DNA from: a virus
Lineage: Duplodnaviria; Heunggongvirae; Uroviricota; Caudoviricetes
Reading direction: 5' to 3' (one strand)
Length of the DNA: 25,289 nt
Virus record (IMG/VR): IMGVR_UViG_2698536647_000005
Positions 13,307-17,682 of the stretch are shown in pieces. Within the stretch, counting starts at the first letter, position 1; the number at the start of each line of letters is the position of its first letter. The notes beneath the pieces were generated by a model. That model was not told where the DNA came from. It searched no databases and saw nothing but the letters and a program-made list of their open reading frames with translations. Made by a program: the position numbers and the translations under genes.

Positions 13307-14143
13307 ATGAAACTTGAAGCTTCACTAAAACACTTTAGCCCTCAGGGTATGCACATCAGCGACGACGTGAAAGGAACCTCTCCGGACCGCCTTACAGGAA
13401 CAGATGTAATGGCGGCAATTGGCACCACCAGCAGCCGTGCGCGCTTCGGACTGGCGGCGTTCTTCGGTAAAGCGGGAATCAGCAAAACGGATGAACAGCT
13501 CGCAGTTCAGGCGCTGGCGCGATATGCGATGGATGTCGCACCGAAGAATGTTCGCAAAGCAGCTGGTGGGCAGTTCGGATGGTGCATGCAGATGTTGGCA
13601 CAATTTGCCTTTGCTGATTATTCACGTTCGGCGGCTACAAGCGTGACGTGTCACAGCTGCAGTGGTACCGGACGAACAACCCGCGAACAGATTACCCGCA
13701 AGGTTTCGTACCCATGGGGTAAAGCTCCATACTGGGCCTGCCGCTCTCGTGCTGTTCGACCGTCTGACTGGGAGCAGTGGATGGAGGTAACAGAGGTTGT
13801 ACCGGCGGTCTGTGATGCTTGCGAAGGCAAGGGAACGATCAGCGCCCGTTGTCGTTGCGGCGGTAAAGGCGAGGTTCTAGACCGCAAGGCCACAAGCGAG
13901 CGCGGCGCGCCGGTGTTTAAAACCTGCGAGCGCTGCAGCGGAAATGGATTTTCTGCGGTGCCGTCTACCGCAGCCTATAAAGTGATACTGAAGCGCGTTC
14001 CGGATCTGCACGTCAGAACATGGACTCGCAACTGGAAACCGTTTCTTGAGGCGCTGGTAAGCATTTGTCAGCAGGAGGAGGGAAACGCCGCAAGAGAATT
14101 TCAATCTGCAACCAGTTTAGGCGAAGAAGGTGACGAAATTTAG
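13307..14143 (+). CDS. Putative late-gene antiterminator (Q-like), Cys-rich with DnaJ-type CxxCxGxG repeats, 278 aa
   Basis: Last gene before a promoter-plus-terminator unit and the lysis cassette, which is the Q position. Three exact CxxCxGxG repeats (CHSCSGTG, CDACEGKG, CERCSGNG) and one variant (CRCGGKG). The functional call rests on position only. Confidence 0.45.
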   Translation: MKLEASLKHFSPQGMHISDDVKGTSPDRLTGTDVMAAIGTTSSRARFGLAAFFGKAGISKTDEQLAVQALARYAMDVAPKNVRKAAGGQFGWCMQMLAQFAFADYSRSAATSVTCHSCSGTGRTTREQITRKVSYPWGKAPYWACRSRAVRPSDWEQWMEVTEVVPAVCDACEGKGTISARCRCGGKGEVLDRKATSERGAPVFKTCERCSGNGFSAVPSTAAYKVILKRVPDLHVRTWTRNWKPFLEALVSICQQEEGNAAREFQSATSLGEEGDEI

Positions 14144-14162
14144 CATTATTACGACATAAGGC

Positions 14163-14192
14163 TTGATTTTGTCCGAAGTTGTCGTGTATGCT
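14163..14192 (+). promoter_or_regulatory. Putative late promoter (pR'-like)
   Basis: TTGATT (14163-14168), 18-nt spacer, TATGCT (14187-14192), about 40 nt upstream of a strong terminator. Would give a transcript of roughly 50-60 nt, analogous to lambda 6S RNA. Confidence 0.35.
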
Positions 14193-14232
14193 TCTAATCA
14201 TGCGGAGTAACGCCTGAAAGATTTAAACAATA

Positions 14233-14254
14233 AGCCCCTTGCGGGGCTTTTTTA
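14233..14254 (+). terminator. Intrinsic terminator (tR'-like), possibly bidirectional
   Basis: Stem AGCCCC, loop TTGC, stem GGGGCT, then TTTTTT. Abuts the stop codon of the convergent minus-strand gene 14252-15202. Confidence 0.7.
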
Positions 14255-15202
14255 TGGCAGCGAGTTAACGAAAGAACTGAAAAGGGCCTTATCTTTATTG
14301 CTAATTGATTTTTTCAAATGTAGTTGATGATTTAAAGGTTTAAAGTTTTCCTTTGTGAGATATATACATGCTTTCTCAAAACGATCCTGAAGGAATTGAA
14401 ATCTTTCATTCAGCCTGGAAACTTTTAATCCTAATGACATGACCTTCTTCTCAGGAATATCGTCAGGATTGCAATTATTGAGTTCTTCCAGCACAAGGCG
14501 AATATCTCTTTCGAAGATTAGCGCTATGTTATAATCGTTGAGGAGGCATTCAGGATTACGAACAATGCCAATTACTTCGTCGATGAATTGTGGTTTTACA
14601 TTATCCTCAGCATTTTCATCTTCGTTATCGGAAGGTTTTTGAGACATAACATTCGACAACTGCATTTCTTCCTTGGTTTTCCTTCTGGGAAGTAAAACTT
14701 TTCCATCTCCTAAAGCAGCCATACGTTTCAAAGCTTGACTCCCGGCTCGGCCAACTACTTTAGAATCTCTTAAATCTAAAATTTTATGTGCGACCCATTC
14801 TAATGATGGTTCACTGGCTTCGATTTTGGCTTTTGCTTGGTAATGGAGAAAAATATTTTTCTTGGCTTCCTTGAGGGCTGTTAGATATCTGTGGAAATTT
14901 GCCTTTTTCTCGAGGTCAGTGGCTAGGTTTTCAAATGCTATACCGAAGACTTTTGTACCGCAAACGTGACCCAGGTTCGTCTCCAGACCATCCTCAGTAA
15001 GAACAAGAAACCCTTTTTTATGGCCTGTTCGACAGCTCGACTTGCCACACGGGATTTCTTCCGGGAGGTCATCATAATAACCAAAAACATCGGATAATTG
15101 TTGATCGGTCAGTTCCAGCCTGGAATGATAGCTTTCCCGAGCTTGAATTTCTGTCCAGTCATTAATGCGATCAAAGCTATTGCCGTTTTTAATAAAAATC
15201 AT
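14252..15202 (-). CDS. Orphan hypothetical protein, 316 aa, low GC, antisense to the late operon (cargo gene)
   Basis: Uninterrupted 951-nt ORF with an AAGGGA ribosome-binding site. Visibly more AT-rich than flanking phage DNA (my estimate; not computed). Opposite orientation to all neighbours. Contains a C-x4-C ... H ... H-x-C cluster but no motif I recognise. Confidence 0.6.
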   Translation of the reverse strand: MIFIKNGNSFDRINDWTEIQARESYHSRLELTDQQLSDVFGYYDDLPEEIPCGKSSCRTGHKKGFLVLTEDGLETNLGHVCGTKVFGIAFENLATDLEKKANFHRYLTALKEAKKNIFLHYQAKAKIEASEPSLEWVAHKILDLRDSKVVGRAGSQALKRMAALGDGKVLLPRRKTKEEMQLSNVMSQKPSDNEDENAEDNVKPQFIDEVIGIVRNPECLLNDYNIALIFERDIRLVLEELNNCNPDDIPEKKVMSLGLKVSRLNERFQFLQDRFEKACIYLTKENFKPLNHQLHLKKSISNKDKALFSSFVNSLP

Positions 15203-15317: not shown

Positions 15318-15394
15318 TCTTGCTCCCGGCCCTTTAGCTCAGTTGGTTAGAGCGTGCGACTCATAATCGCCCGGTCGCTGGTTCAAGTCCAGCA
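15318..15394 (+). tRNA. tRNA with CAU anticodon, ileX-like (tRNA-Ile2; tRNA-Met not excluded)
   Basis: Cloverleaf folded by hand: acceptor stem GGCCCTT/AAGGGCC, D-arm GCTC..GAGC, anticodon loop CTCATAA, T-arm GCTGG TTCAAGT CCAGC, 3' CCA. Close to E. coli ileX as recalled from memory. Confidence 0.8.
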
Positions 15395-15396
15395 AG

Positions 15397-15470
15397 GGCC
15401 ACCAGACCGCCACTAGCTCATCGGGAAGAGCGGCAACCCAGGTGTTGTGGTACGGGGTTCGAGGCTCCGG
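15397..15470 (+). tRNA. tRNA-like element with a non-canonical anticodon loop (possible pseudo-tRNA)
   Basis: Perfect acceptor stem CCGCCAC/GTGGCGG with discriminator and CCA, a D-arm GCTC-ATCGGGAA-GAGC and a T-arm CGGGG-TTCGAGG-CTCCG. The anticodon arm folds only as stem GCAAC/GTTGT with a 6-nt loop CCAGGT, or as a 4-bp stem with an 8-nt loop; no 7-nt loop is possible. Confidence 0.5.
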
Positions 15471-15482
15471 TGGCGGACCACT

Positions 15483-15558
<76 letters not shown>

Positions 15559-15561
15559 TAT

Positions 15562-15636
<75 letters not shown>

Positions 15637-15831
15637 GTTTAAGCTTTTCGGTCTGCGATGATGGGGTCCCCGGAGTGACTGAAAAGCGACCTAGTTTTGA
15701 ATGGGCGCTGCTTTTTGCAAAATTGCTGTGTGAAAATGCTGACCTTTGGGTTCAGCGCTCATCCAAAAGCATCTCGTTAAAATCCAGTTAACCTCGGGTG
15801 GTTTGTTGGGTGAGGTGCCTCAAATTCAAAT

Positions 15832-15856
15832 AGCCTCGCTTCGGCGAGGTTTTTTC
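15832..15856 (+). terminator. Intrinsic terminator
   Basis: Stem AGCCTCGC, loop TTCG, stem GCGAGGT, then TTTTTT. Confidence 0.65.
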
Positions 15857-16073
15857 ATTTGTAAGACAACCATCAGGAAGCAATGGCTAATCTCATTGAC
15901 TGCAGGAATAAGTTCGGCGTAATTTATTTCTGTGGTGAATCCTTTCTAAGCGAAAGGGCGTTCCAGCCAACTGCTATCTGCAGGTATGCGCGCGACTTTG
16001 CTGGCTGGAGTAGAGTCACCGGGAGGCACCCGGCACCATGACAACTACAATACAAGTTTCAAATTCCTTGAGA

Positions 16074-16101
16074 GCCTGCCATTAAACGCAGGCCTTTTTT
16101 T
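16074..16101 (+). terminator. Intrinsic terminator
   Basis: Stem GCCTGC, loop CATTAAAC, stem GCAGGC, then CTTTTTTT. Confidence 0.6.
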
Positions 16102-16240
16102 ATGGTTTTGCAAACTGCTGCTACGCTTTGAGTTGTGGGAAGTAACTGAATGCCCGGTGGTTCTCCTGGACCGATAGTGAATCAGCCGATACAGCTTCAC
16201 CTCTGAGCATAAGTCTTACTCACACCTACCTTACAAATAG

Positions 16241-16269: not shown

Positions 16270-16380
16270 GCTTTTTTTATTTCAGGCTCCGGGAACCATC
16301 ATCGACATGACTGCTTGTTAAATCGTCCCGAGGGCCTGACCCCTTACACACAGCTCCCGCCATTACGCGAGGAGATAGAG

Positions 16381-16629
16381 ATGATCCGATATATGCCTGA
16401 CAAAATTGCATCCGCAGTCTCGTATTGCGTGTCCGGCAGTCTTATTTGTGGAGGCGGCATTTTGCAATGGTTGCACGACCTCGACTGGAACAAGGTTGCA
16501 GTGATTGGCGGATTTCTTATCGGCATCGCCACATACCTGACCAACCTTTACTTCAAAAGACGCCAGACCAAGGCATACGAGAAGGCCCTAAAGAAGGGCT
16601 ACATCACCGCGCCACCACAGGATAACTAA
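16381..16629 (+). CDS. S: Pinholin, S21-like, with a dual-start motif (second ATG at 16393), 83 or 79 aa
   Basis: GAGGAG ribosome-binding site. Two transmembrane segments and a basic C-terminus; IATYLTNLYFKRR matches the P21 S21 pinholin signature LTYLTNLYFK recalled from memory. The MIRYM double start is typical of holin/antiholin pairs. Immediately followed by a SAR endolysin. Confidence 0.8.
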   Translation: MIRYMPDKIASAVSYCVSGSLICGGGILQWLHDLDWNKVAVIGGFLIGIATYLTNLYFKRRQTKAYEKALKKGYITAPPQDN

Positions 16630-16630
16630 C

Positions 16631-17170
16631 ATGGCATCGATCAGAGCAAAACTAAGCGCAGCTATGCTATCCCTGATCGCCGCTGGTGCTTCAGCTCCTG
16701 TGCTGTTTGACCAGTTCATCAGTGAGAAGGAAGGCAATGCGCTCGTTGCTGTGATGGATCCCGGTGGCGTCTGGTCACTATGCCATGGCGTAACAGTTAT
16801 CGACGGCAAGCGTGTCGTAAAAGGCATGACTGCTACCGAAGCGCAATGTAAGAAGGTGAACGCGATTGAGCGTGACAAAGCGCTTGTATGGGTCGATAGG
16901 AATATCAAGGTTCCACTGACAGCGCCACAAAAGGTAGGCATTGCGTCCTTCTGCCCGTACAACATTGGTCCAGGTAAATGCTATCCATCGACCTTCTACC
17001 AGCGAATCAATGCCGGTGACCGGAAAGGGGCCTGTGAAGCTATCCGCTGGTGGATTAAAGACGGTGGCCGCGATTGCCGCCTAACCAAAGGCCAGAAGAA
17101 TGGCTGCTATGGTCAGGTTGAGCGACGGGACCAGGAAAGCGCGCTGGCGTGCTGGGGGTTAGACCAATGA
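16631..17170 (+). CDS. R: SAR endolysin (phage lysozyme with N-terminal signal-anchor-release domain), R21-like, 179 aa
   Basis: N-terminal hydrophobic Gly/Ala-rich segment (LSAAMLSLIAAGASAPVL). Catalytic Glu ... Asp ... Thr spacing (EGNALVAVMDPGGVWSLCHGVT) as in T4 lysozyme and P21 R. Start is 1 nt after the holin stop. Confidence 0.85.
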   Translation: MASIRAKLSAAMLSLIAAGASAPVLFDQFISEKEGNALVAVMDPGGVWSLCHGVTVIDGKRVVKGMTATEAQCKKVNAIERDKALVWVDRNIKVPLTAPQKVGIASFCPYNIGPGKCYPSTFYQRINAGDRKGACEAIRWWIKDGGRDCRLTKGQKNGCYGQVERRDQESALACWGLDQ

Positions 17171-17682
17171 AAATTAATCCGGGTCTTATAGGCGTTGTTG
17201 TTATTGCTGTCCTTTCGGTCGCTCTCGCTAAGAGTTGCTCCAACGCCAGTCGCCTTCAGAGCGATAACGACGTTCTGCGAAGTGACAACTCTATGCAGGG
17301 GCAGGTGATCGCCACCCAGGCATTCAACTTCAATCGATTCAATCAGGTTGCAGAACATGCCAACAGGCTAAACTCCCTGATCGACACCAGCACCGAAGAA
17401 ACTGTAATCGAATACCGGGAGATTCTCCGCCGTGAAAAAACCTGTGATCTGCCTGTTCCTGCTGACATTGCTGGTGGGCTGCTCGAATACGCGTACCGTT
17501 TACGTTCCAGCGCAATGCACGCCGATACCGACGGACCTGACGCAGCCGATGATAGTACCGCTGCCGCCGGCTCAATAACGTACTGCCAGGCTGTGCTCTG
17601 GATTAAGCCGCTGCTGGCCGTGATTGAAAAGGGCAATAACAATTTCGCTGGAATTCGTCAAATAGAGAGCGAGCGTCAATAG
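17167..17682 (+). CDS. Rz: Rz-like inner-membrane spanin, about 171 aa
   Basis: ATG at 17167 overlaps the endolysin stop. N-terminal transmembrane helix (LIGVVVIAVLSVALA) followed by a coiled-coil periplasmic domain. Contains an embedded +1-frame Rz1 gene. Confidence 0.8.
   Translation: MKINPGLIGVVVIAVLSVALAKSCSNASRLQSDNDVLRSDNSMQGQVIATQAFNFNRFNQVAEHANRLNSLIDTSTEETVIEYREILRREKTCDLPVPADIAGGLLEYAYRLRSSAMHADTDGPDAADDSTAAAGSITYCQAVLWIKPLLAVIEKGNNNFAGIRQIESERQ
17432..17578 (+). CDS. Rz1: Rz1-like outer-membrane lipoprotein spanin embedded in Rz (+1 frame), 48 aa
   Basis: My translation: MKKPVICLFLLTLLVGCSNTRTVYVPAQCTPIPTDLTQPMIVPLPPAQ, from a GTG start. Lipobox LVGC and a proline-rich C-terminus, typical of Rz1. 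Below the track's length cutoff. Confidence 0.7.
   Translation: MKKPVICLFLLTLLVGCSNTRTVYVPAQCTPIPTDLTQPMIVPLPPAQ

Follow-up and report, generated by a model that had tools for sequence, protein, structure and literature searches.

What is transcribed from the short interval behind the antiterminator gene Q in the virus record IMGVR_UViG_2698536647_000005, and what purpose does the transcript serve? The window (the whole stretch of DNA that was analysed, 25,289 nucleotides) is an Escherichia coli lambdoid prophage, and its stretch from Q to the downstream tRNA genes is present at 99.9% identity in five complete E. coli genomes. A first-pass annotation had placed at positions 14163-14257 a transcription unit running from a promoter, pR', to a terminator, tR', and had proposed a small RNA of the 6S or StxS kind as its product. 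On the evidence given below, the unit is very probably the pR'-qut-tR' late-gene control cassette of a lambdoid prophage with an antiterminator of the Q-lambda family. This is a well-known kind of element, of which the present unit is an uncharacterised example with one geometric peculiarity; no description of this pR' block was found in the literature.

The Q gene, the conserved block and the terminator

The unit and the gene ahead of it comprise the following features (positions in the window):

13307-14143, plus strand: Q antiterminator gene, 278 aa, Q-lambda family, with an enlarged zinc-binding arm
14163-14168, plus strand: candidate pR' -35 hexamer TTGATT, read from the sequence, matching the consensus at 4 of 6 positions
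14187-14192, plus strand: candidate pR' -10 hexamer TATGCT, from conservation in 54 variants
14199-14200, plus strand: predicted transcription start, C14199 or A14200, 7-8 nt after the -10 hexamer
14232-14253, both strands: tR' intrinsic terminator (stem 14232-14249, loop TTGC, T-tract 14248-14253)
14200-14256, plus strand: predicted terminated pR' RNA, AUGCGGAGUAACGCCUGAAAGAUUUAAACAAUAAGCCCCUUGCGGGGCUUUUUU(AUG), 54-57 nt, starting at 14199/14200 and ending at about 14253-14256

The Q protein matched Pfam family PF03589 (Antiterm; E 6e-54), was assigned to PHROG 127 (anti-termination protein Q-like) and aligned with the lambda Q structure 7ubm over residues 1-125 and 179-262 (phmmer, E 3e-39). 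PF03589 is the Q-lambda family, which is separate from the Q21/933W and Q82 families (bioRxiv 10.1101/651190), and no similarity was found between the window Q and QuuD of DLP12. The zinc-ribbon arm of lambda Q was matched twice in the window protein, on either side of an insertion of about 55 residues, and the translation contains four Cys-pair motifs (C115/C118, C169/C172, C182/C184 and C207/C210), compared with two pairs in lambda Q. As a separate observation, most of these Cys pairs stand in a CxxCxGxG context, as in DnaJ, and the Pfam model DnaJ_CXXCXGXG gave a weak match to Q that lay under its cut-off.

Loci with Q relatives were collected from species-representative genomes (32), from IMG/VR (80) and from annotated E. 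coli and phage records, and were anchored on the promoter spacer motif, giving 54-59 distinct variants of the unit. A block of 40 bp (14162-14201) was almost invariant (CTTGATTTTGTCCGAA-n-TGTC-n-TGTA-GCTTC-n-AATC-R-T), and its flanks, from the Q stop codon to the -35 hexamer and past about +17, varied across the family. More than 100 prophage loci, spread over many Enterobacteriaceae and including Salmonella Fels-1 and Klebsiella prophages, had the block behind a Q relative, with Q identities down to 53%; the genera represented among the 54 variants were Escherichia, Citrobacter, Enterobacter, Atlantibacter, Raoultella, Trabulsiella, Buttiauxella, Klebsiella and Salmonella. An intrinsic terminator came after the block in 54 of 56 units, with a T-tract beginning 47-64 nt past position 14200, and the terminator stems belonged to several unrelated types (among them CCCGCC..GGCGGG, CCCTGCC..GGCGGGG and GCCCC..GGGGC). 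An independent search of IMG/VR that used only the DNA motif, and no protein, brought up 80 loci. Flanks were usable in 67; in 66 of these a Q homologue (62-100% identity) ended directly upstream, and in 61 a terminator T-tract was found at +47 to +64. The fixed Q neighbour, the invariant 40-bp block and the swappable, recurrent terminator at a set distance thus argue for a cassette of promoter, Q-utilisation site and tR', and not for chance.

Directly 3' of Q, with 20 bp from the stop codon to the -35 hexamer, the sequence suggests a sigma-70 promoter whose key positions are invariant across the 54 variants. The -35 region, CTTG(A/C)TT, is nearly invariant, and in the -10 hexamer T1, A2 and T6 are the same in every variant, in forms that include TAAGCT, TATATT and TAGTAT, a pattern that would be expected of a -10 element. 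TTGATT and TATGCT are separated by an 18-bp spacer, TTGTCCGAAGTTGTCGTG. Position 14200, a candidate start, is a purine in 54 of 54 variants (A in 36, G in 18). Constitutive activity of the promoter in lysogens is assumed by analogy with lambda.

The first-pass annotation had described a promoter-like element and a strong terminator only about 40 nt apart, and the distance from the end of the -10 hexamer to the hairpin is indeed 40 nt (the sequence after TATGCT up to the hairpin being TCTAATCATGCGGAGTAACGCCTGAAAGATTTAAACAAT), with the terminator called by the scan and the promoter by conservation. The plus-strand call consists of AAGCCCCTTGCGGGGCTT (14232-14249) followed by TTTTATGG, with the hairpin AAGCCCC-TTGC-GGGGCTT; an intrinsic terminator lies between the candidate promoter and the late genes. 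The predicted pR'-to-tR' RNA of 54-57 nt, directly behind the Q gene, agrees with the length of roughly 50-60 nt given earlier.

Candidate Q-binding and pause elements

In the systems studied, pR' is constitutive and is stopped at tR' in lysogens, and Q loads at a Q-binding element together with a sigma-dependent pause element (PMC9388147, PMC7547250, PMC5001585). Candidates for these elements are present in and just behind the promoter:

14169-14183, plus strand: candidate Q-binding element TTGTCCGAAGTTGTC, in the promoter spacer, containing TTG-N7-TTG
14196-14201, plus strand: candidate sigma-dependent pause element, the -10-like repeat AATCAT (compare lambda AACGAT)
14211-14212, plus strand: predicted promoter-proximal pause site, a pyrimidine-G (Y-G) dinucleotide at about +12/+13, placed by its lambda-like distance

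Within the spacer, all 54 variants share TTGTCCGAA unchanged, and the TGTC behind it is nearly invariant. The arrangement TTG-N7-TTG also occurs in lambda (TTGAATAAAATTG) and P22 (TTGAATAAAGTTG), where it begins 27 bp ahead of the pause element; in the window TTGTCCGAAGTTG begins at 14169 and AATCAT at 14196, the same 27 bp. Lambda Q is bound as a monomer on a 13-bp element, contacting positions 1-4 and 11-13, beside sigma on the pause element (PMC9388147). In AATCAT, A2 and T6 are invariant in all variants, and a G-rich stretch (14202-14204) comes next; the corresponding hexamer is AACGAT in lambda, P22 and mEp460 (followed by GGG in lambda and mEp460, and by GGA in P22) and AACAGT in ES18. 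All 54 variants have a pyrimidine at 14211 and 40 of them have G at 14212, and the lambda pause, C+16/G+17, stands at the same distance from its hexamer as the Y-G of the window (10 nt after). The window and the pR' regions of lambda and P22 have in common the layout TTG-N7-TTG, 27 bp, an AAYNRT hexamer, GG, and Y-G 10 nt further on. At the level of such motifs, 14169-14183 is likely to be the Q-binding element and 14196-14201 is likely to be the pause element.

Several observations weigh against this reading of the unit. The promoter TTGATT-18-TATGCT (14163-14192) matches the consensus at 8 of 12 positions and was not called by the promoter scanner, the minimum of which is 9 of 12; the density of equally good sites in the window is about 1.3 per kb per strand, and judged by consensus alone the promoter is not beyond chance. 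Because 8/12 matches are so common, the promoter needs evidence other than the consensus, while the terminator call stands by itself. The pause hexamer is also unusually placed: AATCAT begins 9 bp downstream of the first base of the -10 hexamer, compared with 12-13 bp in lambda, P22, mEp460 and ES18, and in these four phages it begins at +1, whereas in the window it would reach from about -4 to about +2, counted from the predicted start. With the 9-bp spacing the predicted start falls inside the pause hexamer, a geometry which, as read from the sequence, appears to be undocumented among the Q proteins that have been studied. Finally, the DNA likeness to lambda pR' was not significant, with 23 of 71 positions identical in the register anchored on the pause element and shifted registers scoring as well. 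Since overall DNA similarity is undetectable, the correspondence with lambda rests on the short motifs.

Other placements of the elements were considered and rejected. GTGTAT (14184-14189) as the -10 hexamer would restore the 12 bp of lambda, but has T at position 2 and a last position that varies, and the most divergent member of the family, in which the 9-bp position is taken by the near-consensus TAGTAT, counts against it as well. TCTAAT (14193-14198) as the -10 hexamer never has A at position 2. A cassette of the phage 82 kind, in which the pause would come at +25 and the -10-like sequence would be the TAnnnC that stands at +7 to +12 ahead of GCC, does not fit a Q of the lambda family as opposed to Q82 or Q21, and the hexamer at +7 to +12 lacks the conserved A2 and T6.

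If the assignment of AATCAT is right, sigma would re-engage when the RNA is about 9 nt long, and the pause would fall near +12. We consider it unlikely, though possible, that one of two further things holds here: either a Q with a doubled zinc arm loads at this unusually early pause at about +12, or the RNA of about 55 nt has been recruited as a chaperone-binding riboregulator. The early pause is suggested by a sigma-binding repeat that may overlap the start, 9 bp past the start of the -10 hexamer, and would, if true, represent a new loading geometry for Q-lambda; a riboregulator may extend to the Stx2f-phage version of the RNA too. The 9-bp spacing from -10 to pause element also provides a natural test of how early a lambda-type Q can load.

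The region around the predicted start bears on one more explanation, according to which the unit encodes a leader peptide and its translation controls attenuation. An ATG at 14200 opens a 5-codon open reading frame (ORF; ATG CGG AGT AAC GCC TGA), and ATG or GTG is found at the predicted +1 in many variants. The RTG is, however, accounted for by the G-rich tract together with the two bases that end the conserved hexamer, several variants begin with GTA or ATA and have no start codon, and neither the sequence nor the length of the ORF (1 to more than 20 codons) is conserved. With neither a ribosome-binding site nor an alternative antiterminator structure, a leader peptide is exceedingly improbable.

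The shared terminator, the predicted short RNA and the late region

Downstream of the unit, the following features were located:

14252-15202, minus strand: convergent accessory gene, phrog_7003, 316 aa, its stop codon overlapping the tR' T-tract
15328-15636, plus strand: tRNA cluster with a CAT anticodon (annotated Ile), Thr-TGT and Gly-TCC (ARAGORN, Rfam, RefSeq)
15832-15851, plus strand: second terminator-like hairpin from the scan, which a Q-modified polymerase would have to pass
16315-17682, plus strand: lysis genes for holin, lysozyme and Rz-like spanin (Pfam Phage_lysozyme; PHROG holin and Rz-like spanin)

The convergent protein matched phrog_7003 over its full length (E 3.5e-118), which was its sole match; searches of Pfam, PADLOC, NCBIfam and PDB returned nothing. 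Its TAA stop codon (14254-14252) overlaps the T-tract, and the scan called the hairpin on the minus strand also, followed there by ATTGTTTAAA; the minus-strand tail behind the hairpin, AUUGUUUAAAUC, was accepted as terminator-like. The 3' end of the predicted RNA is antisense to the 3' end of this gene. Homologues of phrog_7003 were found in 22 other loci (22-100% amino acid identity), always convergent and immediately behind the unit. The terminator is physically common to the unit and the convergent gene, and recurrently so, as the first-pass annotation had it for this locus. From the layout, a polymerase modified by Q would read antisense through the convergent gene, and it is reasonable to suppose that expression of that gene would be coupled to the state of antitermination.

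Sharing of the hairpin raises the possibility that it is merely the 3' terminator of the convergent gene, the promoter hexamers being chance matches and the short transcription unit not existing. In addition to the weak and common promoter match described above, the loci with a phrog_7003 homologue are exactly those with the AAGCCCC..GGGGCTT type of terminator, which speaks for this explanation. Yet the block is followed by an equidistant terminator, formed by other hairpins, in loci with wholly different downstream genes, many of them co-oriented, and in the window the T-tract is stronger on the plus strand (TTTTTT) than on the minus strand (ATTGTTT). Within the phrog_7003 sub-lineage, moreover, the RNA is 73-98% identical and the adjacent gene about 30-50% identical at the nucleotide level; the high identity runs through the hairpin and breaks exactly after the T-tract, where nucleotide identity between loci goes from about 75-95% to about 30-50%, so that the hairpin belongs with the Q side. 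That the locus holds a gene terminator and nothing else is accordingly very improbable.

A number of observations were made on what follows or precedes the unit in related prophages. The Stx2f phage phi467 has the same block 3' of Q, followed by two minus-strand ORFs and then stxAB, and the first minus-strand ORF between tR' and stxAB (in the locus 2508-5089) resembles the N-terminus of phrog_7003 (38% identity over 90 aa). In the Shiga toxin-producing E. coli strain 90-3040, a phrog_7003-type gene of 306 aa is convergent behind the block. The slot after the unit is occupied in an Atlantibacter prophage (locus 4026-4450) by a cspA thermoregulator leader (Rfam, 215 bits), presumably with a cold-shock gene, and in E. 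coli S1 (locus 2766-3916) by an insertion of TnpB/insertion sequence (IS) type; a terminator was looked for behind the unit of E. coli S1 and none was found, and that locus is apparently a decayed prophage remnant between IS1 copies. Ahead of the unit, E. coli MB06232 (locus 2276-5208) has, relative to the window, an insertion of 2.9 kb between the DUF968 gene and Q, containing a second antiterminator gene, two holin genes and a GH19 lysin.

The cassette would release a short RNA, and the question of whether this RNA does anything in its own right was approached from its fold, its conservation and its possible targets. Folded alone, the 57-nt RNA formed the tR' hairpin, with a minimum free energy of -15.8 kcal/mol; ahead of the hairpin came a weak stem at the 5' end and a linker that was rich in A and unpaired. 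Such an RNA might be a functional trans-acting small RNA (sRNA), probably binding Hfq, that regulates host or phage mRNAs in lysogens in the manner of StxS or IsrK. Riboregulators derived from pR' are known (StxS, PMC7547250; IsrK, PMC4825925), the Rho-independent terminator with six U and the unstructured A-rich linker ahead of it (AAC-AAU-AAG) resemble those of chaperone-binding sRNAs, and the RNA is far better conserved in the phrog_7003 sub-lineage than the gene beside it, a pattern for which recombination at the terminator is an equally good explanation. Against this, the linker and hairpin are swapped wholesale across the family, the first 16 nt at the 5' end are already explained by DNA-level signals, and covariation in the 5' stem-loop (+1 to +18) was weak, with 67.5% of cells paired compared with 63.6% in shuffles. 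No Rfam family came near its threshold for the unit, and no similarity was found to StxS, IsrK, lambda 6S or the P22 leader. A search of the window for targets of +1 to +32 gave nothing above shuffled controls, the best non-self duplex (-24.3 kcal/mol) falling inside the shuffled range of -21 to -27. The trans-acting role that had been suggested by likeness to StxS therefore found no backing in sequence similarity, Rfam, the variable linker or in-window targets; we hold a function of this kind to be unlikely, and the RNA is most likely primarily a by-product of the late-gene switch. If it were functional, it would join the few cases, StxS and IsrK, in which a by-product of antitermination has turned regulator. 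The Rfam family STnc420 (18.6 bits, threshold 70) was dropped as a possible Salmonella homologue; its consensus maps to core-genome DNA outside prophages, and its gathering score was reached in none of 20 related loci.

The late genes, for lysis and morphogenesis, lie 3' of the unit on the same strand: large ORFs further downstream of the lysis genes align to the terminase/portal region of related E. coli prophages, and the lysis genes would, from their position in the sequence, be the first late genes under pR'. In a lysogen, TTGATT-18-TATGCT would direct sigma-70 RNA polymerase to begin at about 14199/14200, and sigma would re-bind AATCAT, holding the polymerase in a pause when about 12 nt have been transcribed. 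As long as Q is absent, the polymerase would then stop at the hairpin and T-tract (14232-14253), freeing an RNA of about 55 nt. Once the prophage has been induced, Q would occupy the conserved spacer element TTGTCCGAAGTTGTC and join the paused polymerase, which would thereby resist tR' and read on, antisense through the accessory gene and across the tRNA genes and the second hairpin, to reach the lysis and structural genes. From the opposite side, the tR' hairpin would also end the transcript of the accessory gene.

Within the tRNA cluster, ARAGORN reported an odd tRNA-like gene with a two-base anticodon (15407-15480) between the CAT tRNA and tRNA-Thr, which is in neither RefSeq nor Rfam. An ORF of 71 aa (15576-15791; phrog_30175, E 3e-51) overlaps tRNA-Gly (15562-15636), and phrog_30175 probably represents tRNA DNA that was called as a protein family, with no real gene behind it. 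Between the hairpin at 15832-15851 and the holin gene there is a match to the Rfam family STnc100 (15899-16105; 53 bits, threshold 47), and one to three copies of STnc100 are present at the equivalent site in Fels-1 and other related prophages.

The unit would mark the start of late transcription in this prophage family, and it shows which sequence must stay intact when nearby genes are engineered or deleted. Since this Q/pR' block would also control stx2f in phi467 and, in Fels-1, the late genes, the start site, the pause and the efficiency of the terminator would bear on the expression of toxin and lysis genes.

Comparison with known systems

The Stx phages Sp5 and 933W, the source of StxS, resemble the cassette proposed for the window in that pR' is terminated at tR' in lysogens, with tRNA and late genes downstream, and the statement in the first-pass annotation that the terminated transcript of Stx phages acts as a regulatory sRNA agrees with the published account (PMC7547250). 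RNase E releases StxS, 74 nt long, from a primary transcript of 258 nt, and both the binding of StxS to Hfq and its targets, rpoS and stx1B, have been demonstrated (PMC7547250); processing from a long precursor would not be expected for a primary transcript of about 55 nt such as that predicted here. The Q of the StxS phages belongs to the Q21/933W family (the annotation of 933W Q gives similarity to the Q proteins of H19B and DLP12) and is unrelated to the Q-lambda type of the window, and a blastn-short comparison with the 933W interval from Q to the tRNA genes returned a 12-nt match in the terminator tail and nothing else.

IsrK of Salmonella Gifsy-1 is likewise a short terminated RNA with its promoter 3' of a Q-like gene, where read-through gives a longer mRNA (PMC4825925). 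The Gifsy-1 Q is annotated as similar to that of phage 82, and thus belongs to another family than the window Q; with an 82-like Q in Gifsy-1, identity of the window RNA with IsrK was rejected, leaving IsrK as an analogue. The Rfam isrK model (RF01394) scored 10.8 bits against the unit, compared with a threshold of 50, and blastn comparisons with the units of Gifsy-1 (IsrK), lambda, P22 and 933W showed nothing beyond terminator tails.

Of the systems compared, P22 is close to the window in several respects. The product of its gene 23 belongs to the same protein family as the window Q (34% identity by tblastn), and the order of Q gene, promoter, pause element and early terminator is the same; the annotated P-late, qut and t-late give an RNA of about 59 nt (transcription start at 1402, terminator end at 1460), near the length predicted here. 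The two differ in that P22 has no DNA similarity to the window beyond the terminator tail GGGGCTTTTT, its pause hexamer AACGAT stands at +1, 12 bp past the start of the -10 hexamer as against 9 bp, its Q is a 207-aa protein with a single zinc ribbon as against 278 aa and four Cys-pair motifs, and there is no convergent gene behind t-late. With a terminated pR' RNA of about 66 nt in mEp460 as well, a pR' RNA as short as that of the window is ordinary in this Q family.

The archetype of the cassette is the pR'-qut-tR' region of lambda, with a Q homologous to that of the window, a constitutive promoter, a sigma-dependent pause, and a terminated short RNA that accumulates in lysogens (PMC7547250, PMC9388147). 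The lambda RNA is, judged from the sequence, about 194 nt long (transcription start at 788, T-tract at about 975-981), compared with about 55 nt in the window, the two RNAs have no sequence similarity, and their pause geometries are 3 bp apart. The proposal of a 6S- or StxS-like RNA consequently holds in its first part, by position, and fails for StxS by Q family and by sequence, where the likeness is functional only. As a transcript predicted to run from pR' to tR' of a Q-lambda cassette, the window RNA appears to be the positional equivalent of lambda 6S and of the P22 late leader.

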